DNA of 62,005 nucleotides from a virus (IMGVR_UViG_3300037247_002096:1-62005), one strand, 5' to 3'; counted from the stretch's first letter, positions 7,744 to 55,770 are shown. The notes: a model not told the origin generated them from the sequence alone. Numbers and translations: made by a program.

Positions 7744-8922
7744 ATGACAACTTTAAAAGATTTAAAACCGGACACCAAAAACGCCCGCAAGCATAACCCC
7801 AGAAATATCGGCATGATAGCCGATGCGTTGCGCGAAGTTGGCGCGGCCCGATCCGGAGTCATCGACGAAGATGGCAATATTTTAGCTGGCAATGGCACCT
7901 ATGAAGCCCTCGCCGAAGCTGGGATTGAAAAAGTAAAAATCGTTGAAGCCGATGGAAATGAGTGGGTCGTTGTAAAACGGTCCGGATTGACCAAAAAAGA
8001 AAAAGCCAAACTCGCTCTTTATGACAACCGCACGGCGGAATTGGCCGATTGGGACATTGATAACCTTGGCCTGCTGGATGACGAACACGAAAATATTTTT
8101 GACAATATTTTCTCCCAAGATGAATTGGATGAATTGTTCGGAGATGACTCAGGCCCTGGTGAATTGGAAGGCGAAGACGATGCCCCAGAACCACCAGTAG
8201 AACCGACAACCAAACTGGGGGATATGTATCAGTTGGGCGATCATTTTCTTTTGTGTGGCAATTCAACTGATAAGGCCCAAGTTGACAGGCTTATGGATGG
8301 GCAGAAGGCCGACATGGTTTTTACTGACCCGCCGTATGGGATCAACGAAAAAACTGACAGAGTTTTTGCGAGTCGTACACGTGTGACAAAAGGAAATAGT
8401 TTCCCAAAAATTATTGGGGACAAATCTATTGACACCGCTTTAATTGCTTTTGAAATTGCCAATAGTCTGTCAGATATTGTTTGTTATTGGGGAGGCAATT
8501 ATTTTTCTTATAAACTTCCGCCATCTCCTTGCTGGATTGTTTGGGATAAGAGGGTTGAGGATAAACAAAGAGATGTTAATAGCGATTGCGAACTTGCGTA
8601 TATTAAACATCCCTCAAAAAAATCAGTAAGGATTTTTAGGCATCTTTGGAAGGGAATGATTAAAGGTTCCGAGAATGGCCAACGTCGAATTCATCCAACC
8701 CAAAAACCAATTGCCTTAGCAGAGTGGTGTTTTATTGAACTTGATAAAGAAGGCAGATCTGTAGTCGATCTTTTCGGCGGATCCGGATCGACCATGATCG
8801 CCTGCGAAAAAATGAATCGAAAATGCTACATGATGGAAATTGACCCTGCTTACTGTGATGTGATTGTCGAACGATATAGGAATTTATTTCCGGAAAAAGA
8901 AATATGTCTGATGAAGATGTAA
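7744..8922 (+). CDS. ParB-like N-terminal domain plus N6A/N4C DNA methyltransferase
   Basis: NARKH and ILAGNG in the ParB-like part; DPPY, HPTQKP and DLFGGSGST motifs. Confidence 0.9.
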   Translation: MTTLKDLKPDTKNARKHNPRNIGMIADALREVGAARSGVIDEDGNILAGNGTYEALAEAGIEKVKIVEADGNEWVVVKRSGLTKKEKAKLALYDNRTAELADWDIDNLGLLDDEHENIFDNIFSQDELDELFGDDSGPGELEGEDDAPEPPVEPTTKLGDMYQLGDHFLLCGNSTDKAQVDRLMDGQKADMVFTDPPYGINEKTDRVFASRTRVTKGNSFPKIIGDKSIDTALIAFEIANSLSDIVCYWGGNYFSYKLPPSPCWIVWDKRVEDKQRDVNSDCELAYIKHPSKKSVRIFRHLWKGMIKGSENGQRRIHPTQKPIALAEWCFIELDKEGRSVVDLFGGSGSTMIACEKMNRKCYMMEIDPAYCDVIVERYRNLFPEKEICLMKM

Positions 8923-34332: not shown

Positions 34333-35403
34333 TTGAAAATCATGGAAATAAACAATTTAAAAATCTTCGTTCGCGGTGCTTACGATCTACAAAAACTTCG
34401 TATCCAAATGGGGAATCGTATCGTTGCCAATTTCAAGGCGCGATTGGGCCAAAAGGCCGGTGAAAGTGAAGAAACCCTGGATGAAAAGGGTAAAGAACTG
34501 CTATCGCAAATTAGGAAAAGTTATAAAAAAATAACCGACAATGTAAAAACCTTCCCCCGACAATCAACATTTACTGGTGATCAGGTTATCAGCACGTTTA
34601 CCGAGCTTTGTTTGGTCGCACAATATGTCAGCCTTGAGACCCAGGAAGACAGCCACTTTAAAAGGCTGGGTTCCATGTTGAACGAGTATCCCATCTTTAC
34701 CGAATATCTCAAAGACGTTAGGGGCATCGGCCCAGCGATGGCTGGTGTGTTGATATCCGAAATCGATATCGAAAAATGCCAGTATCCATCCAGCTTGTGG
34801 AAATATTGCGGGCTTGACGTGGTTGCTGAATGGACATTGGACAGAGTTGTTGCTCTTGTTAATCCTGACAAAATTCCGCACAAGTTCCCTGAGAAAAGAC
34901 CTTTTTATATATTTAAAGACCAGTTTAACTTTTTGCACTTTGAGAAGGAAGGTGAGCCAAATGAATTGCATATTTTTTATAAAGAAAAAACCCTGAAAGC
35001 TAAATTAATTTATGTTTGGACAGGTGACCTTAAAGGACGTTCCAAGAAAAAGGAGCATTTGGTGCAAACTGAGTATATCGATAAAAACAATGAAGTGGCT
35101 TTTAAAATGGGCATCACTTTTAACCCATGGCTAAAATCCAAATTGATTGGTGTGCTGGCATCCTCATTTTTACGGGCGGGGGATAACATCTATAGCCAAG
35201 CCTATCGAGACTATAAAAACAGGATCGAGAATCACCCCGATCACCTTGAAAAGACAAAAGGACATCGCCATAACATGGCAATGCGCTACATGATTAAAAT
35301 ATTTTTAATCGACTTTCATAGAACTTGGCGAGCTATTGAGGAGTTGCCCGTTACCACCGTTTATTCTAAAGGCAAACTCGGAATTGTTCATAAAGCAGGA
35401 TAG
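34333..35403 (+). CDS. tasA: TIGR-associated (Tas) Nop/IS110-like RNA-binding protein with no nuclease domain (TasA-like)
   Basis: Coiled coil (YDLQKLRIQMGNRI), then GIGPAMAGVLISEIDI...SSLWKYCGL, FNPWLKSKL, HRHNMAMRYMIK; no RuvC or HNH seen; abuts a dual-repeat array; ATG at 34342 is an alternative start. Confidence 0.85.
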   Translation: MKIMEINNLKIFVRGAYDLQKLRIQMGNRIVANFKARLGQKAGESEETLDEKGKELLSQIRKSYKKITDNVKTFPRQSTFTGDQVISTFTELCLVAQYVSLETQEDSHFKRLGSMLNEYPIFTEYLKDVRGIGPAMAGVLISEIDIEKCQYPSSLWKYCGLDVVAEWTLDRVVALVNPDKIPHKFPEKRPFYIFKDQFNFLHFEKEGEPNELHIFYKEKTLKAKLIYVWTGDLKGRSKKKEHLVQTEYIDKNNEVAFKMGITFNPWLKSKLIGVLASSFLRAGDNIYSQAYRDYKNRIENHPDHLEKTKGHRHNMAMRYMIKIFLIDFHRTWRAIEELPVTTVYSKGKLGIVHKAG

Positions 35404-36337
35404 TCATGCCATATAAGAAACCCAATAGATAAGAGCGAGTCATAAAACTGAAGAAACCCAATATATGAAAGCGAGTCATTACATTATAGAAAACCATAAA
35501 AAGGAAGCGGGTCATTGAAGCAAAGAAACCCAAATCAATATAGCGAGTCAAAAAAATCCAGAAACCCAATGAAACGAAGCGAGTCATTAAACTTAAGAAA
35601 ACCAGAATGAAGAAGCGAGTCAACTATGGCTAGAAAACCAAAAATCTAAAGCGTGTCAAAAAGTAAAAGAAAACCAAATGAATGAAGCGTGTCAAAAAGA
35701 TTTAGAAAACCATATGAACGAAGCGTGTCAAGTAAAGAGAGAAAACCAATAATTCCAAGCGTGTCAATACTACATAGAAAACCAGTATCAATAAGCGTGT
35801 CATAGGAGAATAGTAATCCACTTTCCTAAAGCGGGCCAATAGTTTTTAGAAAACCAATAAAAGAAAGCGAGTCAAATTGAGGTAGAAACCCATTAGAGAA
35901 AAGCGTGTCATAAAAGCTTAGGAAACCAAAAAACTAAAGCGTGTCACTTCCAACGAGTAAACCTAATGAAGGAAGCGCGTCAATAAGAAAAAGGAAACCA
36001 ATATCGTTTAGCGAGTCAATGTATAGAAGAAAACCATAATGAGGAAGCGTGTCATAGTGAGCAAGAAAACCAAGAGGAAAAAGCGTGTCAATAGGCATGA
36101 GAAACCCACAGAAAATAAGCGAGCCAGTGAAAGCGAGAAAACCAAGCTAAAAGAGCGAGTCACAACCACTAAGAAACCCAACAATATGGAGCGTGTCAAT
36201 GAAGTTTAGAAACCCAATGTCTAGAAGCGAGTCACTACATCAAAGAAAACCATTATAAGGAAGCGAGCCACAGCAATAAAGAAAACCATAATAGTTAAGC
36301 GAGTCAAAAGACAAAAGAAAACCACAGAAGAAAAGCG
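35402..36337 (+). ncRNA. TIGR array 1: 26 units of 36 nt (AGTCA-spacerA9-AGAAAMCCA-spacerB9-AGCG)
   Basis: Parsed by hand; strict 36-nt period, alternating AGCGWGTCA and AGAAAMCCA repeats, variable 9-nt spacers. Confidence 0.92.
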
Positions 36338-36359
36338 ATTATCAAATAGGAATTTTTAA

Positions 36360-43231: not shown

Positions 43232-45325
43232 ATGAAAGATGATTTTTTAAAAAAAAATATGACAAAAATGATGTTTTCGGTAGTAGCAATATTGGCTTTT
43301 AGCATTATTGGACTGATCATTTACATTTCAACCACCAGCTTTAACAACACGGTGGCATCCAGCAAACTCAACGCCCTGTCTATCATCGATCAATTCAAAA
43401 CTTTACGTGCCTATTACGTTAAAAGCGTTATCAAAAAGGTCAAAGCCAATGACACCGGCTTGCAAATATCTATCGACCACAAAAACATGGACGATGCTAT
43501 CCCCCTACCTGCAACCATGATTCATGATATGAGCGAATTATTGAGCGGAAAAGGTAAAGACAATATAAAATTGAAACTTTACAGTGATTTCCCGTTTCCA
43601 AATCGTAAAGGTAGAAAATTGGATAGTTTTGGAAAGTCAGCTTTAGCGTTCTTTCAAGCCACTCCGGATCAACCTTTTGTAAAAGAAGAAACATTGAATG
43701 GCCAGTCCGTTGTTCGCGTTGCCGTTGCCGATAAAATGATCGCCAAGGCTTGTGTGAATTGCCACAATACCCGCTACGACACCCCAAAAAATGATTGGAA
43801 ACTGGGCGATGTGCGTGGTGTGCTCGAAGTCATTTCCCCCATCGATACTCAATTAGCAGCAAACAGCGCGATGTTAACCAAAGTAATTAGTATCACCGTT
43901 TTCTGTTTGATCCTGGTGGCTTTGATGGTCGCAGGCGTCTTGATGCAAATGAAGGCAATGAGAAGATCACAAACTGAAAACGCAAAAATAATCTCGATAA
44001 TTGAAAACGCTCCTATCAATATCCTTTTTGCGGATACAGACTTTGATTTGCAATATATGAATAAAGCTTCATTTAAAACTTTAAAGACTTTGGAAAAGAG
44101 TCTTCCTGACAGGGTGGAAAACCTTGTTGGGCAATCGATTGATATTTTCCACAAAAATCCGGCTGTGCAACGAAGAATTCTTTCCGACCCAAAAAATCTC
44201 CCACATCAAGCTAATATCCAACTGGGTCCAGATACTCTGGATCTTTTGTCAAACGCGATTTACGATAATGATAAAAACCATATGGGGTCTATGGTCACAT
44301 GGGCGGTGATCACTGATAAACTTGCGCGGGAACAAAAAACAAAGGAGATGCAAGAACGTGAACAAATGCAGTCTAAAGAGTTGCAAGAAAACGTGGATAG
44401 CATTCTTGATGTTGTGAGTGCCGCCGCCATGGGGGATCTCACCCAAGAGATCACCGTGCAGGGTGATGATGCCATTGGGCAAATGGGCAAAGGGCTGACA
44501 CAATTTTTCTTGGATCTGCGTAAAAATATTTCAGAGATTGCGGATACAGCCCAGACCCTCAGCAGTTCATCAGAGGAATTGAGCACAATCAGTCAAACCA
44601 TGGCGGGCAATGCGGAACAAACTTCCGCTCAGGCAAATGTCGTGTCAACCGCGTCCGAGGAAATCGCTCGCAATGTTGAAACAGTAGCAACAGGTGCGGA
44701 AGAAATGGGCGCAAGCATTAAAGAAATTGCCCGCAATGCCAATGAAGCGGCAAAGGTGGCCAAATCCGCTGTGGTCATCGCCGAAAAGACCAACGAAACA
44801 GTGGGCAAACTGGGTGTCAGTAGTACAGAAATAGGGCAAGTCATAAAAGTCATCACCTCGATTGCAGAGCAAACCAACTTGCTGGCTTTGAACGCAACCA
44901 TCGAGGCGGCTCGTGCTGGAGAAGCCGGAAAGGGCTTTGCAGTTGTCGCCAACGAAGTCAAAGAACTGGCGAACCAAACAGCCAAGGCAACTGAGGAAAT
45001 CAGCCAAAAAATCGAGGCCATTCAATCGGATACTCAAAGCTCCGTTGATGCCATTGCCGAGATCACCATGGTCATTAACCAGATCAACGATATTTCTAAC
45101 ACCATCGCCAGCGCGGTTGAGGAACAGACCGCAACCACGGCGGAAATTGGGCGCAACGTGGAACAAACCGCCAAAGGGAGTAATGAAATATCAGAAAATA
45201 TTTCCGGAGTGGCTAAGGCGGCTCAGGAAACCTCTACAGGTGTCGGGCAAACTCAGCAAGCGGCAACAGACCTGTCAAAAATGGCCGCTGATCTGCAAAA
45301 ACTTGTCAGCCGATTCACTTATTGA
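43232..45325 (+). CDS. Methyl-accepting chemotaxis protein with periplasmic heme-c (DUF3365-like) sensor and PAS domain
   Basis: Two TM segments, CVNCH, PAS-like [38 protein letters not shown]. Confidence 0.93.
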
Positions 45326-45347
45326 TTATGATGAAAGGGGATGGGGG

Positions 45348-46298
45348 ATGGGATTAGAAAAACTTGGTAGGATTGAGAAAATCGATATTAGGGATCAATG
45401 GAAACATGAAGCCAATGATTTTACGCCTTGGTTAGCTGAAGATAGAAATATTCAAATTCTTTCCGAAGCAATTGGCATTGATATTGAGGTTGAAGGAATT
45501 GAAGTCCCGATTGGATCATTTATTGCTGATATTATTGGGAAAGATGAAGAAGGTAGAAAAATTATTATAGAAAATCAATTATCGAAAACCGACCACAAGC
45601 ATTTGGGCCAAATCATCACCTATGCTTCTGGCATCGATGCAAAAATTCAAATATGGATATGTAAAGAAGTCACAGAGGAACATCGGCGGGCAATAGATTG
45701 GTTGAATGAATTTACAACCTCCGAGGTAATATTCTTCGCTTGTGAAATCGAGTTGTGGAAAATTAATGAATCTTTATGCGCCCCTATGTTTAAAGTGGTT
45801 TCAAGTCCAAATGATTGGTCCAAAACAATTAAAACTAACCCAAGTGAAATAAAATCACCTCTTAAAAAAATTCGGTTAGAATTCTGGAATGGCTTTAAAG
45901 AATATATGACAGAAAAAGGAACGGATTTAAGATTGAGAACTCCAGGCTCTAACCATTGGTATACTGTATCTCTAGGCACATCCCATTTTAGTTTAGCCTG
46001 GACTATCAATACAAAAGAAAACCGATTGGGATGTGAACTTTATATGGGCGGGAAACCCGCAAAGAAATATTTTTCTAAGCTCTGTGAAATGAAAGAAGAA
46101 ATCGAAAACGAAATTGGACCCCTAATTTGGATGGAATTGCCTGATAAAACAGCTTGCAGGATCATTGTTTACCATGATGGTGATATTAAAAACAAATCTC
46201 AATGGCCAGATCTCTATAATTGGCTCGGTGAAAAAGCGGAGGCGTTTCATTTGGCGTTCTCTAAAAGGGCAAAAAAAATATCAACTGAGCAGGAATAA
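45348..46298 (+). CDS. DUF4268-domain protein with NucS-like PD-(D/E)XK N-terminus
   Basis: HEANDFTPWL, IIIENQL..TDHKHLGQIITYASG; start reassigned to ATG 45348. Confidence 0.85.
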   Translation: MGLEKLGRIEKIDIRDQWKHEANDFTPWLAEDRNIQILSEAIGIDIEVEGIEVPIGSFIADIIGKDEEGRKIIIENQLSKTDHKHLGQIITYASGIDAKIQIWICKEVTEEHRRAIDWLNEFTTSEVIFFACEIELWKINESLCAPMFKVVSSPNDWSKTIKTNPSEIKSPLKKIRLEFWNGFKEYMTEKGTDLRLRTPGSNHWYTVSLGTSHFSLAWTINTKENRLGCELYMGGKPAKKYFSKLCEMKEEIENEIGPLIWMELPDKTACRIIVYHDGDIKNKSQWPDLYNWLGEKAEAFHLAFSKRAKKISTEQE

Positions 46299-46324
46299 AA
46301 GGCAGTTATGGAAAGGATTGAATA

Positions 46325-47281
46325 ATGCCTAGTTATAATATTGGGAGTTTATTTGCAGGGATAGGTGGTATTGACCGTGGTTTTCAGGATGCGGGTTTTA
46401 AAATAAAATGGTCCAATGAAATTGACAAAAAAGCTTGTAAAACCTTTTCAGTCAATTTCAGTCACAAAATGTATTCCGGCGATATAAAAAATTTAATTGT
46501 AGCGAATTTGTCAAAAGTTGATGTTTTGACAGCTGGTTTTCCTTGTCAACCTTTTTCCATAGCTGGTTATAGAAAAGGGTTGATGGATGAGCGGGGAGGA
46601 GCTATTTTTTTTCAAATGATGCGGATAATAAAAGGATTAAAACCGAGAGTTATTTTCCTTGAAAATGTTAAAAATTTAACTACTCATGATAAGGGAAGAA
46701 CGTTAAAGATTATAATGGAAGCTCTTATAGAGGCGGGATATCAATCCCCGAAGTATGCGATTTTAAACACTTGCGAATATTCTCAGTTGCCACAAAATCG
46801 GGAACGGCTTTTTATTGTTGGTTTTAAATATAAAAAAGATCAAGTCCGCTTTAATTTTCCAGAAAAAGAAAAGAAACAAAAAACCATTAAACAATTATTG
46901 GAAACAAAAATTCCAGAAAAATTTTATTATGATCAATTAGGATCAAAAATTTTTCCTACGTTGCAGAAAGCCATTACAAGAGTGGATACATGTTATCAAT
47001 GGCGAAGGAAATATGTCCGGGAAAATAAAAGCAATATGTGCCCAACTCTAACAGCTAATATGGGGACCGGTGGCCATAATGTTCCTTTGATATTGGATAA
47101 GGGCCGAATAAGAAAACTGACCCCAAAAGAATGTGCCAAGTTTCAAGGCTTTCCAAAAGATTTTATTCTTCCAGAAAATATGACAAATTCGGACCTTTAT
47201 AAACAGATTGGCAATAGTGTCAGCGTCCCAGTTGTAACTCGAATCGCACATAATATTCTGGAGGCCATTAGTAATTCATGA
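46325..47281 (+). CDS. DNA cytosine-C5 methyltransferase
   Basis: FAGIGG, GFPCQPFS, ENV, QNRER, YKQIGNSV. Confidence 0.95.
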   Translation: MPSYNIGSLFAGIGGIDRGFQDAGFKIKWSNEIDKKACKTFSVNFSHKMYSGDIKNLIVANLSKVDVLTAGFPCQPFSIAGYRKGLMDERGGAIFFQMMRIIKGLKPRVIFLENVKNLTTHDKGRTLKIIMEALIEAGYQSPKYAILNTCEYSQLPQNRERLFIVGFKYKKDQVRFNFPEKEKKQKTIKQLLETKIPEKFYYDQLGSKIFPTLQKAITRVDTCYQWRRKYVRENKSNMCPTLTANMGTGGHNVPLILDKGRIRKLTPKECAKFQGFPKDFILPENMTNSDLYKQIGNSVSVPVVTRIAHNILEAISNS

Positions 47282-47754
47282 ATAAAAAATTCACTGAAAA
47301 AAAATGGGAAATTAACCTTACTGGAATTTCTGAAGGAATTTTCAAACCGCAACATGGAACTGCAAATGAAATGATCGCTGTTGGAAGAACAATCAAAGCA
47401 GGATTCCCTACCTCCAGGTCAGATATTACAAATGCCACCTATGATGCAATCGTTGAAGTTGATGGGGGTAAAAAATTATTAAGAATCCAAATCAAAGGAA
47501 CAACCACCGGGACTGTGTCTCTTATTGGTGGACATAGAAGTGGCAAACAAATAGATAAAAATGCACCAAAAAGAATATATAAATATTCAGAAAAAAATTG
47601 CGATATTTTTATTGGAATAAATTCTCATAATGGTGATTGCTACATAATCCCAGCATCACACCTTAAAAAATGGGGTGGTACTAAGGCATTATCAAAATTA
47701 CAAGATTATAAGGAAAAATGGCAACATTTGGTCGATGTTGCAAAGAAAGCTTAA
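47278..47754 (+). CDS. PD-(D/E)XK endonuclease, probable cognate restriction enzyme
   Basis: YDAIVE...RIQIK; overlaps the MTase stop. Confidence 0.7.
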   Translation: MNKKFTEKKWEINLTGISEGIFKPQHGTANEMIAVGRTIKAGFPTSRSDITNATYDAIVEVDGGKKLLRIQIKGTTTGTVSLIGGHRSGKQIDKNAPKRIYKYSEKNCDIFIGINSHNGDCYIIPASHLKKWGGTKALSKLQDYKEKWQHLVDVAKKA

Positions 47755-47791
47755 AACATAATGCCAAAAATGAGTAAATGAACGGGGATGT

Positions 47792-48514
47792 GTGATGGTG
47801 ATAGTACCGTGGGAATATTACAATGTTTTGTGCGATAAAAGATTAGAAATATTTTGTTGCATTTTTTGTGGTGATAAAACAGAATCACGAGATCATGTCA
47901 TATCAAAAGTTTTTTTAGATAAACCTTATCCAAACGAATTACCAACAATTGGTGCGTGTATAGATTGCAATCGAGGATTTTCTATGGATGAAGAATACCT
48001 TGCTTGTTTGATTGAATGTGTTTTGAGCGGAACTACCAACTATGAAAATATTAAACGAGAAAAAGTAAGACACATTTTAAAACGCAAACCCTCTTTAGTA
48101 ATAAGATTAAAAAAAAGTAAAAAATCAACTTATGGGCAAATATGTTTTATCCCGGAAAATGATAGAGTCAAAAATATTATTATCAAAATTGCAAAGGCTC
48201 TAATAGGATTTGAGCTTACAAAACTGGTATTTCAAAAACCGTTTAAAGTAAGTTACTTACCGATTCCCAATATGACGCAAAAAGAAAGATTAAGTTTTGA
48301 AAGATTACCAGATTGTCTTTTGTGGCCAGAGATTGGTACAAGAACATTTCAAAGGATGGTTTTGGGAAATTTTGGAATGGGGAAAAACGCAATATGGTGC
48401 GATGTTCAACCAGGAAGGTTTCGTTTCTCAGCTATTCATTTACAAACAGAAATAATTATTCGCTTTGTCATCTCAGAATATCTGGCTTGTGAGGTTGTTT
48501 GGGATGATGATTGA
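47792..48514 (+). CDS. HNH-endonuclease-like protein
   Basis: CIFCG...SRDHV...ACIDCN. Confidence 0.75.
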   Translation: MMVIVPWEYYNVLCDKRLEIFCCIFCGDKTESRDHVISKVFLDKPYPNELPTIGACIDCNRGFSMDEEYLACLIECVLSGTTNYENIKREKVRHILKRKPSLVIRLKKSKKSTYGQICFIPENDRVKNIIIKIAKALIGFELTKLVFQKPFKVSYLPIPNMTQKERLSFERLPDCLLWPEIGTRTFQRMVLGNFGMGKNAIWCDVQPGRFRFSAIHLQTEIIIRFVISEYLACEVVWDDD

Positions 48515-48564
48515 TTTTTAAGTAAATAACCCGGCCAAAAATGAGTAAATGAAGGGGGGTTGAC

Positions 48565-48924
48565 CTACCTGAATCCTTTGCCAATTCCTGCGGCAATAAA
48601 AGATAAAGCTAATTTATTCATAGATATATTTTCAGCTTTTGCCATCGCCGCCAATCTTGCATGGAGTGATTTTGGTAATCGCTGGACATACTGGCCGCTG
48701 TGAGATTTCCCCGGTTTTGGTATTTCCTGTTTAAGGCTCTTGGCAATTTTCAGCCAATACCACACGGCGTCCTGCCCGTTTTTAAGCACATCTTCCAGTG
48801 TCTTCCCATCCGACATACAACCGGGCAGATCGGGATAGGTTATAAAAAACCCACCTCCAGCACCATCCTCCGGTAATATTGTCACCTCAAAAGGGTATTT
48901 CGTGATCTCTTTATCTTTTTTCAT
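48565..48924 (-). CDS. hicB: HicB-family antitoxin (no hicA seen)
   Basis: YPDLPGCMSDGKT; C-terminal RHH QRLPKSLH. Confidence 0.9.
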   Translation of the reverse strand: MKKDKEITKYPFEVTILPEDGAGGGFFITYPDLPGCMSDGKTLEDVLKNGQDAVWYWLKIAKSLKQEIPKPGKSHSGQYVQRLPKSLHARLAAMAKAENISMNKLALSFIAAGIGKGFR

Positions 48925-48974
48925 TTACAGATGATACCATATATGGTATCATTAAGGAAGCTAAATAAAGGAGG

Positions 48975-49397
48975 ATGGGGATGAAGATATACTATCGTAA
49001 AACATTTAAAATCGGCCTGATATTTCTGGTCTCTTGGGCGATTCTATCCGCTGGTATTGCACGAGCGGATGCGCCGACCATTTCAACTGGTATTGGTTTC
49101 ATGGAGATTTGTGAATCAAAAGAAACCCATTTTGTGTGGGCTTGCCTATCTTATATTGAGGGTTGGCGGTATGGTTTTTTTGCCGCACGGTACAAAGGGG
49201 GGGGAACCCACCAGTCTGAGTTTAATTTACCTGCTGAAGCAACCTATGACCAAATCAAAATGGTGGTGTTGAAATATTTACACGCTCATCCCGAAGAGCT
49301 TCACAAGGCCTCTTATTGGTTGATAAAAGATGCGCTTGTGGAAGCGTTCCCCTGGGAAAACAAACACAAGCTTGGGGTTCAAGGTTTTCTTAATTAA
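48975..49397 (+). CDS. Rap1a/Tai-like secreted immunity protein
   Basis: Signal peptide; C..YIEG, VVLKYL.AHPEELH..., AL.EAFP. Confidence 0.7.
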   Translation: MGMKIYYRKTFKIGLIFLVSWAILSAGIARADAPTISTGIGFMEICESKETHFVWACLSYIEGWRYGFFAARYKGGGTHQSEFNLPAEATYDQIKMVVLKYLHAHPEELHKASYWLIKDALVEAFPWENKHKLGVQGFLN

Positions 49398-50170: not shown

Positions 50171-51055
50171 ATGGAGAAAAATAAAATACCTAAAGCCACG
50201 CATTCAGGAATTCTTGAAATCGGGGAAATAAAAATTCAATGTTATGTTTTAGAAGATCGAACAAGGGTAATTTCCCAGGGCGGAATGGGAAAGGCACTTG
50301 GAAAAAGTCGAGGACGCGATTTAGCCGTTTTCTTAACAAGAAAGGGACTCAAACCCTTTATTTCTAAACAACTCCTCGACGACATCAAAAAACCCAGACT
50401 TTTCATTCCGCCGCATGGCGGAAAGCCTGGATATGCATATAAAGCAACGGTTCTAGCTGATATTTGTGAAGCTGTTTTAAAATGTAGAGCAGAAGGAAAA
50501 CTTAAAGCCCAACTTAAACATATTGCGACACAATGTGAAATTCTTGTGCGAGCTTTTATGAAAGTTGGAATTATCGCATTGGTGGATGATGCGACTGAAT
50601 TTTCCAAGCTGAAATCTGAATATAGACAATTATTTAAAGAGTTTATAAGAGATGAAGCGGGAAAATGGGAGAAGCAATTCCCAGATGATATTTATGATAT
50701 TTTCTATAAAATTTATGAGCTTCCTAGGTCCGAGAATAAAAATAAGCACCCTTTATTTTTTGCTAATTTGACACGTAAATATATTTATGAGCCATTGGCT
50801 GGAAGCAATGGTGGGCTTTTAAAAATGCTTGATGAAAAAAATCCAATATTAATTTCAAATTCTGGGAAAAAAAAGAGAAAATTTAAATTTCACCAATTTC
50901 TTGAAAAAATAGGAATAAATACCCTCCAGCAACATATGTGGCAATTAATTGGTATTGGGAAGGCATCTTCAAATAAAAATTCATTTAATAGAAATTTTAA
51001 TAGGACATTTTCTAAAAATTATCAATTCCATTTATTTGATGAAGATGAAGAATAA
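50171..51055 (+). CDS. P63C-domain protein
   Basis: CYVLED.TRVISQ, GIIALVDDAT, WEKQFPD. Confidence 0.85.
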   Translation: MEKNKIPKATHSGILEIGEIKIQCYVLEDRTRVISQGGMGKALGKSRGRDLAVFLTRKGLKPFISKQLLDDIKKPRLFIPPHGGKPGYAYKATVLADICEAVLKCRAEGKLKAQLKHIATQCEILVRAFMKVGIIALVDDATEFSKLKSEYRQLFKEFIRDEAGKWEKQFPDDIYDIFYKIYELPRSENKNKHPLFFANLTRKYIYEPLAGSNGGLLKMLDEKNPILISNSGKKKRKFKFHQFLEKIGINTLQQHMWQLIGIGKASSNKNSFNRNFNRTFSKNYQFHLFDEDEE

Positions 51056-51841: not shown

Positions 51842-52720
51842 ATGTCACCAGAAAAAGAAGAAGAAAAAATTAAAAACCAATCTGATTTACCATTTGCCAA
51901 ATGGCGCGGGATAATAGATTTAGGCGGCAATGAGCTTGATTGTTATGTTTTGGACACTGGTCAAAGAGTAATTTCTATTCGTGCCACAATTAAAGCCATC
52001 GCAGATATTGACTCTGGAAACCTGGGCAGTTATATAGAGGCAAATGCACTTAAACCCTTTATAAATAACGATAAAATCCTGGGCGAACTTTTGGAGTTTT
52101 CGATCCCTGGAACACAATTAAAGGGTCTTGGTCTTACGACAGAACATTTTGAATTAATATGCCGTGGTTATGTGCAGGCTCTTTATACAAAAGCAGTTTT
52201 AACTGATAGGCAAACAGAAATCGCTATCAAATGCGCTGTATTGTCTGCTGGTTTGACAAGAACCGGTCTTGATGCCCTGGTCGATGAAGCCACAGGTTAT
52301 CAATTTGAGCGTTCTACTGATGCTCTGCAAATTAAACTTAAAGCTTTTATTGCAGAGGAATTGCGTGCATGGGAAAAAACATTCCCTGATCAACTTTGGG
52401 AAGAATTTGGTCGTCTAACAAACTGGCAAGGAGCTCTGAGAAGTAGACCAAAATGGTGGGGTAAATTAGTTATAGAATTGATTTATGACACACTTGATCC
52501 TGACGTTGCAGAATATCTGAAGAACAACAAGCCAGAACCGGGCATTCATTGGCATAGGAGGTTAACCGAAAATTTAGGCGTCAGTCAGTTAGTCTCTCGG
52601 TGCTATGAGGTGATTGGTATGGCCAAAGTCTGTAAAGATATAAAACAACTCAGACAGATGGTCGCACAACATTATGGTAAAAAACCTTTGCAATTCACAA
52701 TGTATTTCTATGAAAAATAA
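51842..52720 (+). CDS. Second P63C-domain protein
   Basis: CYVLDTGQRVIS, GLDALVDEATGYQ, WEKTFPD. Confidence 0.85.
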   Translation: MSPEKEEEKIKNQSDLPFAKWRGIIDLGGNELDCYVLDTGQRVISIRATIKAIADIDSGNLGSYIEANALKPFINNDKILGELLEFSIPGTQLKGLGLTTEHFELICRGYVQALYTKAVLTDRQTEIAIKCAVLSAGLTRTGLDALVDEATGYQFERSTDALQIKLKAFIAEELRAWEKTFPDQLWEEFGRLTNWQGALRSRPKWWGKLVIELIYDTLDPDVAEYLKNNKPEPGIHWHRRLTENLGVSQLVSRCYEVIGMAKVCKDIKQLRQMVAQHYGKKPLQFTMYFYEK

Positions 52721-52968: not shown

Positions 52969-53319
52969 ATGTGTGATCCTCAAAAAGATCTAAACCAAAT
53001 TCAAAAAGAATCTCCATTTCTATTTTTCAAACTGTTACCAATTTTCTTTATCGTCGTTGTGGTTTTGTCCCTAATCGGGTTTACAATGTATAACCTGGGT
53101 ATGCTCGGTCAAACTGAAATTGAACACAAAATAGTGGAAGACTCTACCCAACCCACTACGGCTATTCAAATGACTATCGCAAATGAAGAAGAACTCATCA
53201 CGAAACTGGAAGGGAGATTGATGAACCCAAAATTGGACCAAAACATCCGGTTCAACCTCAATACGCAAATCATCTCGGCTCAACTACGAATCAACAGTGC
53301 AAAACGATTAAAAAAATGA
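52969..53319 (+). CDS. Membrane-anchored hypothetical protein
   Basis: Single TM segment; ATG (MCDPQ) preferred. Confidence 0.55.
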   Translation: MCDPQKDLNQIQKESPFLFFKLLPIFFIVVVVLSLIGFTMYNLGMLGQTEIEHKIVEDSTQPTTAIQMTIANEEELITKLEGRLMNPKLDQNIRFNLNTQIISAQLRINSAKRLKK

Positions 53320-53422
53320 AGCAAATTATATTTTTTGCCCTTATTTTGTTAATATTCTTGATCAGTCATAAAAGCTGTCAAACCAAAAGTCCTAAAAAGG
53401 GGGACATCGAATTTGCTGAAAG

Positions 53423-53511
53423 GACGTGCGGCCCTTCGGGGATGCTATGGAACCCTACAGACCCACGCACCGTGACAGACCAATTCGCCTCGTGGCGTTC
53501 ACGGCCACGTC
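53423..53511 (+). ncRNA. Unknown structured RNA motif, copy 1
   Basis: GACGTG/CACGTC closing stem, CCC-TTCG-GGG, CCGTGA/TCACGG, CGCC-TCGT-GGCG; second copy at 56189-56280. Confidence 0.55.
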
Positions 53512-53579
53512 TTTTAATTTTGGGGCCTTCCGGGAAAATGTAAAACCGGTAAATCATGAGTACCGGAAGTGCTTCATTA

Positions 53580-54946
53580 ATCGTGTCATTTTAATCTAGA
53601 AACCCAAAAAGGAAAAGCGAGTCATTCACGCAAAGAAAACCACAATCACAAAGCGAGTCAAAGTACCGAGAAACCCAAAAAAATATAGCGAGTCAAACGT
53701 CCGCAGAAAACCAGACCCAAAGAGCGAGTCAAATCATTTTAGAAAACCAATGGATTCAAGCGAGTCATGTTATGACAGAAAACCAATAAGCCAAAGCGTG
53801 TCATTATCTGGAAGAAACCCAAAGCATGTAAGCGTGTCAGTACTGATAAGAAAACCAGTGATAATAAGCGTGTCAAGTTGACTTAGAAACCCAATATAAT
53901 AAAGCGAGTCAATAAGTTCTAGAAAACCACATAAAGTAAGCGTGTCAAACGTCCGCAGAAAACCAGACCCAAATAGCGAGTCATGTTATGACAGAAAACC
54001 AATAAGCCAAAGCGTGTCAAAATCACAAAGAAACCCAATGCCATATAGCGAGTCATGATATATGAGAAACCCATAGTGATAAAGCGCGTCATAAGAATTG
54101 AGAAACCCAGAGCCAAAGAGCGAGTCAATATTTCCAAGAAACCCAATATAATAAAGCGAGTCAAATCTATTGAGGAAACCAATAAATCTAAGCGTGTCAA
54201 TACCAACTAGAAAACCAAAATCACAAAGCGAGTCATTACATTATAGAAACCCAGAAAAACGAAGCGTGTCATAATTATCAAGAAACCCAAAAAGCTGGAG
54301 CGAGTCAAATTTGACTAGAAACCCATAATAAGTAAGCGTGTCAAAATCACAAAGAAACCCAATGCCATATAGCGAGTCATACCATTACAGAAACCCAATG
54401 AAGCAGAGCGCGTCATTTCATCGAAGAAACCCATAGTGGTAAAGCGAGTCAATATTACGAAGAAACCCAAAGAGGAAAAGCGAGTCAAATTTGACTAGAA
54501 ACCCATAATAAGTAAGCGTGTCAACTCAACCAAGAAACCCAGATTAATAAAGCGAGTCATTCAACAGTAGAAAACCACAGAAGAAAAGCGTGTCATTTTA
54601 ATTGAGAAATCCAGAAAAAAGAAGCGAGTCAGTATAGCGAAGAAACCCATAGTGGTAAAGCGAGTCAATATTACGAAGAAACCCAAAATAGGGAAGCGAG
54701 TCATACCAGCCTAGGAAACCAAAGTATGTAAGCGAGTCATGTTGAGAAAGAAAACCACATAAAGTAAGCGTGTCAAACGTCCGAAGTAAACCAATGGAAA
54801 AGAGCGAGTCATTTCATCGAAGAAACCCATAGTGGTAAAGCGAGTCATTTGAAACTAGAAACCCAGGGTAAAGTAGCGCGTCATTAAAATAAAGAAAACC
54901 AAGAGAAAAAAGCGATTCAAATAATCTTAGAAAACCATATAAAGGA
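53580..54946 (+). ncRNA. TIGR array 2 (orphan): 38 units, same repeats as array 1
   Basis: Parsed by hand; 36-nt period with one 8-nt spacer in unit 3. Confidence 0.92.
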
Positions 54947-55032
54947 GACTGCCATGACCTAGATATATAAACCTCCCTGATAAATTCTCCCACACTCAGC
55001 CCTTCAATTAATTTTAATACCGGAGAATTAAA

Positions 55033-55422
55033 ATGAAATCGATTTATTGTTGGAACAAAAGAATGGCATTAAAAAGGAAGCTGTCCATCTTGGCATATAT
55101 GATCGTCCGTCTCAAAGACGATAGAAAAACTGTGCGGCCAAAAAAGTTTCCCGAATTTATCCGACCTTGCGGGGTGTGGTTGGACACTACCCAATCAGAA
55201 TTTCGTTATCATCACATTGCCGCGTCTATGATGCGTGGTAAAACTATTGAAGAAATTGAAAGATTGCCAAAAGATCCAAATACCAAGGATTCTAGGATTC
55301 GACCTAATATGCGAATGGTCAACACAATTATGGAGGGTTGTTTGGATGAAAATGTATGTGCTGGTATTGAACAGCCTAACGAGGTCTCAGCAAGCGGTGC
55401 AGGGCGGCCATGCCCTGGCTGA
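55033..55422 (+). CDS. Hypothetical phage protein
   Basis: GGAG RBS; FRYHHIA.S.MRGKT.EEIE motif. Confidence 0.65.
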   Translation: MKSIYCWNKRMALKRKLSILAYMIVRLKDDRKTVRPKKFPEFIRPCGVWLDTTQSEFRYHHIAASMMRGKTIEEIERLPKDPNTKDSRIRPNMRMVNTIMEGCLDENVCAGIEQPNEVSASGAGRPCPG

Positions 55423-55645
55423 ATATATTATGCGGAAATGGGATAATGGCAGATTAACCGTTGAATGGGAAAATGGGGATCTTGTCTATCTCAGAGCAAC
55501 TTGGGGTGAATTAATGCTTTATAATTCCGAATCTTCTAATAATGCCGTTGCTTTTTATGAACCGGATATGAGAGGCGAAATCACCGCTGTTGCCATGCTG
55601 GGCGATGACAAAGACATCCGCTTCAGGGGTTTTCGTTTGATGTAA
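55346..55645 (+). CDS. Peptidyl-tRNA hydrolase type 2 (Pth2)-like protein
   Basis: MYVLV...SQQAVQGGHALAE...FYEPD..GEITAVA; GGAGG RBS. Confidence 0.7.
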   Translation: MKMYVLVLNSLTRSQQAVQGGHALAEYIMRKWDNGRLTVEWENGDLVYLRATWGELMLYNSESSNNAVAFYEPDMRGEITAVAMLGDDKDIRFRGFRLM

Positions 55646-55657
55646 ACTTTTTCACAA

Positions 55658-55727
55658 GCCTATGTAGCAGATTGGAATGCAACTGGTTCTAAACCAGGTT
55701 ATGCGGGTTCGATCCCCGCCATAGGCT
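55658..55727 (+). tRNA. Amber suppressor tRNA (anticodon CTA)
   Basis: Acceptor GCCTATG/CATAGGC, D stem GCA/TGC, anticodon arm CTGG-TTCTAAA-CCAG, T arm GCGGG-TTCGATC-CCCGC; no encoded CCA. Confidence 0.85.
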
Positions 55728-55770
55728 TTTTTGGAGTACAATATCTGTACTATAAAGAAAGGACACATCC

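Follow-up and report, generated by a model that had tools for sequence, protein, structure and literature searches.

Spacer and half-spacer reuse in a long, tas-distal TIGR array of a temperate phage and its probable origin by repeat-anchored copying

Genome of the phage and its tas gene

The window analysed here is the whole 62,005-base record IMGVR_UViG_3300037247_002096, a complete virus with direct terminal repeats. Its gene content included a terminase, a portal, a major head protein and ejection-type proteins together with an integrase, which indicates a temperate tailed phage. A tas gene (34333–35403, + strand) coding for a TasA-like protein of 356 amino acids (AA) could be recognized using phmmer, Foldseek and PHROGs. 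The phmmer search against the PDB matched the protein to TIGR-TasR (9mty_A, E 1.8e-10) and TasH (21kl_A, E 4e-5), and the PHROGs comparison assigned it to phrog_4285 (E 2e-34). When an AlphaFold model built on 36 homologues (pLDDT 84, pTM 0.74) was submitted to Foldseek, the ten best matches were all TasH or TasR chains (prob 1.00), followed by IS110-family recombinases. The model is predicted to open directly with a coiled-coil helix, lacking an N-terminal nuclease domain, and to carry a beta-rich insert at residues ~164–262; approximately 69 residues of the insert were missing from the ~285-AA majority of the 2041 homologues of the protein. The predicted architecture suggests the label TasA-like. 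Residues Y344 and H353 were invariant across the 36 homologues, and this C-terminal pair may correspond to the Y/H processing dyad described in 10.64898/2026.09.09.750476. A six-frame search with the Tas protein returned one copy, so that the 62-kb genome holds a single tas.

The tas gene adjoins TIGR array 1 (35401–36338, + strand), which consists of about 26 units. At its 5' end a truncated edge repeat overlaps the stop codon of tas, and its 3' end consists of a truncated edge of the sequence AGCGA. The original prediction had described array 1 as free of duplicates, and no identical pair was present among its 51 in-phase 9-mers (shuffles expect 0.07–0.10). Its statement that the genome has no recognisable Cas1-like acquisition gene also stood: Cas1 (PF01867) gave no six-frame match in the phage at E up to 1, in a search that was positive in 9 of 14 control genomes, and no six-frame match to a reverse transcriptase was found in the phage genome. 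A phage recombinase was not recognized among the 33 ORFs of 131 AA or longer that were compared with PHROGs.

Several other genes could be annotated around these loci. A ParB-like N-terminal domain fused to a DNA methyltransferase (7744–8922, + strand; phrog_498 and phrog_620) lies 25 kb from tas; ParB-like genes are operonised with some TasA loci (Faure et al., PMC12045711). Cargo that looks host-like or defence-like occupies 43232–49397 between the arrays, including a methyl-accepting chemotaxis protein (43232–45325), a C-5 cytosine methylase beside a PD-(D/E)XK nuclease (46325–47754) and a Rap1a-type immunity protein (48975–49397), and a DUF4268 protein is also encoded between the two arrays. 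Two P63C-domain proteins (50171–51055 and 51842–52720) are located just 5' of array 2. Their homologues, 70–77% identical, occur in many prophage records without a TIGR array, and 34 loci retrieved with the P63C-domain protein encoded 5' of array 2 showed no array. A tRNA with the anticodon CTA (55657–55728, + strand), which would read the amber codon, is positioned 0.7 kb 3' of array 2; ARAGORN called it tRNA-Pyl and the Rfam tRNA model scored 61.8 bits.

Architecture and classification of array 2

Array 2 (53580–54946, + strand) begins 18 kb downstream of tas and contains 38 units with 76 spacers on a strict 36-nt unit. The original prediction located an array at this site correctly but gave its extent as 53687–54875, shorter than the array found here; unit 1 was set at 53580, by which the unit numbers equal those used there. 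In both arrays the unit order on the + strand was edge repeat AGCGWGTCA, spacer A of 9 nt, loop repeat AGAAAMCCA and spacer B of 9 nt, with one 8-nt spacer in array 2 (spacer A of unit 3). The 18-nt phase was strict over the 76 elements of array 2, and each repeat was invariant except for one variable position. Both repeats open with AG and close with CA. The array starts at 53580 with a truncated edge, ATCGTGTCA, while beyond 54946 neither a truncated edge nor, immediately 3' of the array, a terminator-like site could be recognised. A terminator-like hairpin with a T run (53491–53511, + strand) is found approximately 70 nt upstream, so array 2 would need its own promoter; a consensus scan revealed none on the + strand. 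A search of RNA runs returned none that contains this sequence.

The features of array 2 are those of TIGR systems: two alternating repeats with approximately 9-nt spacers and a 36-nt unit, a Nop-domain Tas in the same genome, and matching repeat ends. CRISPR-Cas does not describe it, since there is no Cas1 and the repeats are 9 nt long and of two types, not one type longer than 20 nt. Array 2 is a genuine dual-repeat TIGR array, unusually long and remote from tas, in a temperate phage. By comparison, a typical TIGR array has 5–15 units (PMC12045711), and the mean was about 16 tigRNAs per array for 65,635 tigRNAs in 4,126 arrays (10.64898/2026.09.09.750476). With the dual-repeat TIGR-Tas systems (Faure et al. 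2025, PMC12045711; Xu et al. 2026, 10.64898/2026.09.09.750476), as presented in the main texts, the array shares the 9-nt repeats and spacers, the 36-nt unit, the truncated edge at the start, a Nop-domain Tas, an A-rich loop and the box C/D covariation of the repeat ends. It differs from them in standing 18 kb from tas behind a hairpin, in its 38 units and in the redundancy of 14 of its 76 spacers. Its boxes also read AG...CA where TasR arrays have UG...CCA, a change that is allowed if both repeats covary (PMC12045711).

By the definitions of Faure et al. (PMC12045711), the A-rich AGAAAMCCA is the loop and AGCGWGTCA is the edge. The register edge-A-loop-B was supported by related arrays, in which whole-unit indels numbered 92 versus 2 in the other register. 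Between related arrays, 212 identical units and 155 identical B-edge-A junctions were counted. The two spacer slots had distinct compositions (53580–54946 and 35416–36333); in array 2, spacer A was 35% A and 35% T, and spacer B was 53% A and 72% purine. Spacer B ended in A in 25 of 34 units, so that the edge repeat may effectively extend to 10 nt.

Reuse of guides and half-guides in array 2

The original prediction reported that whole units and half-spacers recur in array 2, and the sequence bore this out in detail. The four whole-unit duplicates (6=12, 13=22, 21=26 and 24=35) were all present. Unit 6 with both of its flanking edges (53759–53803, + strand) is an exact 45-nt copy of 53975–54019 (unit 12), unit 13 (54010–54056, + strand) an exact 47-nt copy of 54334–54380 (unit 22), and unit 21 (54299–54344, + strand) an exact 46-nt copy of 54479–54524 (unit 26). 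Unit 24 (54412–54451, + strand) is an exact 40-nt copy of 54808–54847 (unit 35), the 5' edge variant being C in one and A in the other. Units 4 and 11 are one nucleotide apart, as predicted: the core of unit 4 (53692–53721, + strand) is a 30-nt copy of 53944–53973 in unit 11, and the single difference falls in spacer B.

Half-spacers recur beside other partners at the predicted positions, TAGTGGTAA in B24/B30/B35, ATATTACGA in A25/A31 and ATATAATAA in B9/B16. Blocks conserved across the edge repeat could be verified as CATAAAGTA-edge-AACGTCCG at units 10/11 and 33/34 and as TAGTGGTAA-edge-ATATTACGA at units 24/25 and 30/31. The latter is a loop-to-loop block: B24-edge-A25 (54422–54471, + strand) is an exact 50-nt copy of 54638–54687 (B30-edge-A31), and the copy gives TAGTGGTAA and ATATTACGA new partners. 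The loop-started block B10-edge-A11 (53921–53955, + strand) is an exact 35-nt copy of 54749–54783 (B33-edge-A34), and half-spacer B9 with its flanking repeats (53885–53912, + strand) is a 28-nt copy of 54137–54164 (B16). Altogether, the exact repeated stretches of array 2 measured 50, 47, 46, 45, 40, 35, 30, 30 and 28 nt. The 9-mer said to serve in both slots, AAATCACAA, does occur as A13, A22 and B18, but this low-complexity case is not significant on its own.

A comparison of 9-mer reuse with shuffled controls had been proposed together with the original prediction, and it gave 16 identical 9-mer pairs in array 2 versus about 0.15 expected. The pairs arise from 12 reused 9-mers, and the expectation was 0.14 with 2000 column shuffles (maximum 2) and 0.16 with 2000 within-spacer shuffles (maximum 4). 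Redundant copies made up 14 of the 76 spacers. Pairs with one mismatch were also in excess (13 versus 2.7 or 1.5 expected), while pairs with two mismatches were not (11 versus 11.5–20.7 expected). Two 9-mers that the original prediction had not listed were common to both arrays, TTACATTAT in slot A of each and CAGAAGAAA in slot B of each, with different partners; these 2 identical inter-array pairs compare with 0.25 or 0.08 expected. A 10-nt string that the opening spacer of array 1 has in common with B13/B22, at an offset of one, was set aside as being at about chance level.

Support for the array structure in assemblies

The duplicates of array 2 are unlikely to be an assembly artefact, since the longest exact repeat is 50 nt, shorter than ordinary reads, and a k=31 re-assembly contains every junction. 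This re-assembly comes from run X1, which is probably the source sample and so not independent; its k=31 contigs hold 0.94 of the sampled words. The X1 contigs covered 53000–55600 with 0 mismatches, and every repeated block was interrupted exactly 30 nt from its start, which is the break required of a k=31 graph. The four unique unitigs at junctions occurred at depths of 11.3, 12.7, 11.4 and 10.3, compared to 11.3 and 13.5 in the flanks. As the junction depth equals the flank depth, both contexts of those duplicates would be present in most genome copies and would not represent alternative strains. Two internal unitigs of array 2 were at about half depth (6.1 and 6.8 versus 10.3–13.5). An array-length variant in the sample was considered for them, but in a flow check by hand over the repeat graph no single alternative path fitted all depths.

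Run X2, from another study, yielded one 253-nt contig at depth 2.1, which contains window units 31, 28 and 29, exact and in that order, across an 11-nt overlap. A k=31 graph is unable to produce a mis-join across such an overlap. TAGTGGTAA occurred twice more in the X2 contig, with two other A partners. In X2 record 11 (compared with window 54550–54693), spacer A is window A24 shifted by one base beside the same spacer B, and such a shift is not attainable by a single substitution.

The de Bruijn mis-joins that the original prediction had named as the outcome against it were accordingly not borne out on contigs, given the X1 junctions at flank depth and the reuse in X2. More broadly, mis-joins or co-assembled strain variants concatenated into one path could be suspected because the record is a short-read metagenome assembly, X1 is not independent and two unitigs are at half depth. 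Repeats of at most 50 nt, a re-assembly with 0 mismatches and four junctions at flank depth, the reuse of TAGTGGTAA in X2 and the recurrence of the same reuse in the independent contigs L066 and L100 make this explanation very improbable.

Evidence for DNA-level copying between guide units

The arrangement of the reused spacers shows copying of contiguous DNA. Reused spacers in array 2 formed 7 adjacent pairs versus 0.38 expected, a value that 0 of 2000 shuffles reached. Within the exact two-spacer blocks, the internal repeat was identical in 5 of 5 cases (P 0.014), and the flanking repeats were identical in 9 of 10, compared to 0.43 expected per pair. The same tendency could be observed in 25 isolated single-spacer copies (2 from the window and 23 from viral-contig arrays), where the upstream repeat was the same in 21 compared to 13.2 expected (P 0.001), and 18 agreed in the downstream repeat compared to 13.0 expected (P 0.03). 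Repeat variants that travel together with the spacers are predicted by contiguous DNA copying and not by fresh uptake of the same sequence. We consider it probable, with moderate confidence, that the reuse results from non-allelic copying of DNA from one guide unit to another, anchored in the repeats.

Such copying could proceed by short-patch gene conversion, template switching or unequal exchange, and it could take place within array 2, between arrays 1 and 2 or between co-infecting relatives; whether conversion or crossover is the molecular route can only be suggested from the pattern of copies. The copied tracts are approximately 27–50 nt long, and both types of 9-nt repeat serve as their start and stop. 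An edge-to-edge tract copies a whole guide (5 cases here), whereas loop-to-loop tracts (2) and single half-spacer tracts (2) bring an existing half-guide next to a new partner. After copying, the units would drift by point substitution. The chimeric pairs may mostly be by-products of this process rather than an adaptive source of guides.

Several observations count against copying. In the contigs, the material of this search, neither recombination intermediates nor polymorphic junctions could be observed. The 9-nt repeats are short for classical homologous recombination, and compact repeats have been speculated to minimise recombination (Faure et al., PMC12045711, Discussion). Single 9-mers whose neighbours both differ are the commonest within-array block of the wider family (42 of 58), and each such event implies two breakpoints. 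The lack of a recognized recombinase among the 33 ORFs, the two unitigs at about half depth and the derivation of the family counts from short-read assemblies also weigh against it.

Larger events could produce a similar picture, namely segmental duplications by unequal crossing-over that were later eroded to remnants of one or two spacers. The copy distance was 5–7 units in 6 of 9 cases in array 2, and a partial order can be followed by eye (units 4,(5),6 versus 11,12; B7~B32, B10=B33, A11~A34 and B14~B35). The order 31 to 28 in X2 is what would be expected at the joint of a tandem duplication of units 28–31, and indels of 1–7 whole units are common between related arrays. However, none of the 9 blocks in array 2 exceeded two spacers (5 edge-to-edge, 2 loop-to-loop and 2 single), and collinearity beyond the unit was not significant in array 2 (14 versus 11.1, P 0.26). 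The excess of similar spacers was also confined to 0–1 mismatches with none at 2, which speaks for recent small events instead of old large ones. Judged from these comparisons, short patches appear to fit array 2 better than eroded large duplications, and segmental duplication is an unlikely source of the reuse.

Alternatively, adaptation machinery, encoded by the host or the phage, may repeatedly have taken up related targets, so that shared half-spacers would represent shared half-sites. The route of spacer acquisition is described as unknown in the Discussions of PMC12045711 and 10.64898/2026.09.09.750476, and the private units scattered along each related array show that some input of new units exists. 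The spacer A of X2 that is shifted one nucleotide from A24 beside the same B partner, and the presence of AAATCACAA in both slots, could be read in the same way. Against this, the repeat variants inside and flanking the copies were copied along with them. By our own derivation from the targeting rule in PMC12045711, the guide is pseudo-symmetric, and exchanging its halves from (A,B) to (B,A) would leave the addressed duplex unchanged; fresh uptake of a pseudo-symmetric target in random orientation would therefore predict swapped units. Swapped (B,A) duplicate units numbered 0 in the 192 other arrays of the family, and a single slot switch was found.

When all 62 units were searched for targets in the phage in both tandem-spacer geometries with at most 3 mismatches, the counts equalled those of shuffled guides, and the best self-target matches were A-rich low-complexity sequence. 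Reused 9-mers were not enriched in the phage genome and were less common there than unique ones (0.50 versus 1.33 occurrences). Together with the lack of a Cas1 or reverse-transcriptase match and of self-targets above chance, these results make repeated uptake by adaptation machinery quite improbable as the origin of the reuse.

Reuse in the wider repeat family

The edge and loop repeat pair of array 2 was present in many phage and metagenome contigs. The family set comprised 192 non-redundant other arrays, 84 of which had at least 20 spacers; the family counts come from short-read metagenome assemblies read with our own parser, which tolerates 2 mismatches in each repeat, and arrays that reach a contig end are cut short. 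A 9-mer was reused in 32 of the 84 long arrays, giving 60 identical pairs compared to 1.17 expected from column shuffles (maximum 5 in 300). Array 2 was the most redundant of the 193 arrays compared, with 16 pairs, and the next array had 10. The blocks shared within arrays of the family (n=58) were distributed as 42 single, 12 edge-to-edge and 4 loop-to-loop. In array L053, one period has been cleanly duplicated in tandem in the loop register, giving a new A/B unit, and L066 and L100, which lie on different contigs, show the same reuse of half-spacers.

Units that share one exact half differed in their other halves by a mean of 4.84 mismatches compared to 6.34 for random halves, a value reached in 0 of 20,000 resamplings, and the other half had at most 4 mismatches in 12 of 31 cases. 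Because the other halves are closer than random, some of the apparent new partners go back to divergence after copying instead of a swap.

One 58,420-base viral contig of a sister phage, with a Tas 82% identical to that of the window, carries two arrays (L050 and L098). A whole unit is common to both, including the rare edge variant AGCGCGTCA. In L050, spacer A of the next unit is 1 nt off that of the shared unit.

A pattern built on the most reused spacer of array 2 found no close relative in viral_contigs or metagenome_contigs, in which records very near the window were possibly left out, and none of 125 metagenome loci had more than one low-complexity 9-mer in common with the window. The repeat pair also occurred in 9 loci on 8 MAG contigs (L266-L274) labelled Desulfobacterales, Gammaproteobacteria, Candidatus Yanofskybacteria, Thermoplasmatota and Acidipila. 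These labels were discarded as a host clue, as they extend from Desulfobacterales to Thermoplasmatota and so point to no host. The spread means either that the phages were assigned to the bins of many hosts or that a single type of Tas and repeat extends across very distant hosts.

Turnover between related arrays and guide diversity

A total of 239 distinct differences could be collected between related arrays of the repeat family of array 2. They were distributed as 92 pure indels in the edge register, 2 pure indels in the loop register, 98 edge-to-edge replacements, 2 loop-to-loop replacements and 45 replacements with one boundary of each kind, which places approximately one-ninth of the breakpoints in the loop repeat. 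Both repeats are 9 nt long and equally conserved, and the edge bias therefore indicates either selection for intact A/B pairs or unit-wise insertion. Selection for intact pairs may be what the bias reflects. From these array comparisons, whole guide units are the main currency of turnover and chimeric pairs the minority. The changes were scattered along the related arrays and were not polarised to one end, and each relative had private units.

The original prediction held that recombination at either repeat creates new A/B pairs. Breakpoints do occur in both repeat types, but the two repeats are not equivalent, as the count of 92 versus 2 indels demonstrates. The idea of the original prediction that copying at the repeats needs no Cas1-like gene is supported. 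Its wider suggestion that shuffling hints at how TIGR guides diversify holds only in part: new A/B pairs do arise, but reassortment cannot create new 9-mers, so the diversification of guides is not explained by shuffling alone. Point substitution after copying is an equally visible route to variants. It is conceivable, although we regard it as rather doubtful at present, that TIGR repertoires evolve like a multigene family rather than like CRISPR arrays, by repeat-anchored patch transfer within and between arrays, reassortment of half-guides at the loop repeat and then mutation to new specificities; much of the diversity would in that case be endogenous and need no foreign DNA, and the edge bias would be selection on working pairs.

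Comparison with other repeat arrays and implications

Minisatellites and multigene families evolve by unequal exchange and short-tract gene conversion. Array 2 resembles them in its short identical patches scattered over tandem units that otherwise differ, their bounds at conserved motifs and the later point divergence. It differs from them in that its units are guide RNAs whose halves act together; purifying selection on pairings would be expected, and appears visible in the ratio of 92 versus 2.

CRISPR repeats are 23–36 nt long, and CRISPR arrays are also subject to spacer duplication. They have in common with array 2 that units can be lost or duplicated through their repeats without adaptation machinery. 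In contrast, the repeats of array 2 are 9 nt long and of two types, no Cas1 is present, and gain and loss in the related arrays are not end-polarised. An out-of-register event in a TIGR array breaks up one guide and assembles a chimera, for which CRISPR has no equivalent. Spacer loss by recombination in CRISPR is cited in PMC12045711. Term and literature searches of TIGR texts returned no description of spacer duplication or half-spacer reassortment; Fig. S4, table S1 and TIGRSafari may include arrays with duplicates.

The origin, expansion and guide gain of TIGR arrays are given as an open question in the Discussions of PMC12045711 and 10.64898/2026.09.09.750476. Array 2 and its repeat family offer a useful first view of how TIGR arrays change, with guides and half-guides probably copied as DNA patches bounded by either repeat. 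The dominance of whole units in turnover between relatives speaks for selection on the natural A/B pairs and hence for the existence of real targets. Near-variant guides visibly arise when a copy undergoes a point change; the origin of new 9-mers is left unsolved by copying. For multi-guide TIGR engineering, the present arrays carry the warning that rearrangement can occur despite 9-nt repeats.

Substitutions in near-identical spacers were tallied over 35 near-identical unit pairs from the viral-contig arrays and the window. Positions 1–9 had 5, 3, 12, 1, 7, 1, 5, 5 and 6 changes (45 changes, P 0.02). A seed signature was considered and rejected, as the changes were too few (45) and the non-uniformity mild. 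Positions 4 and 6 were rarely changed in this small sample, which may be the footprint of a pairing constraint.
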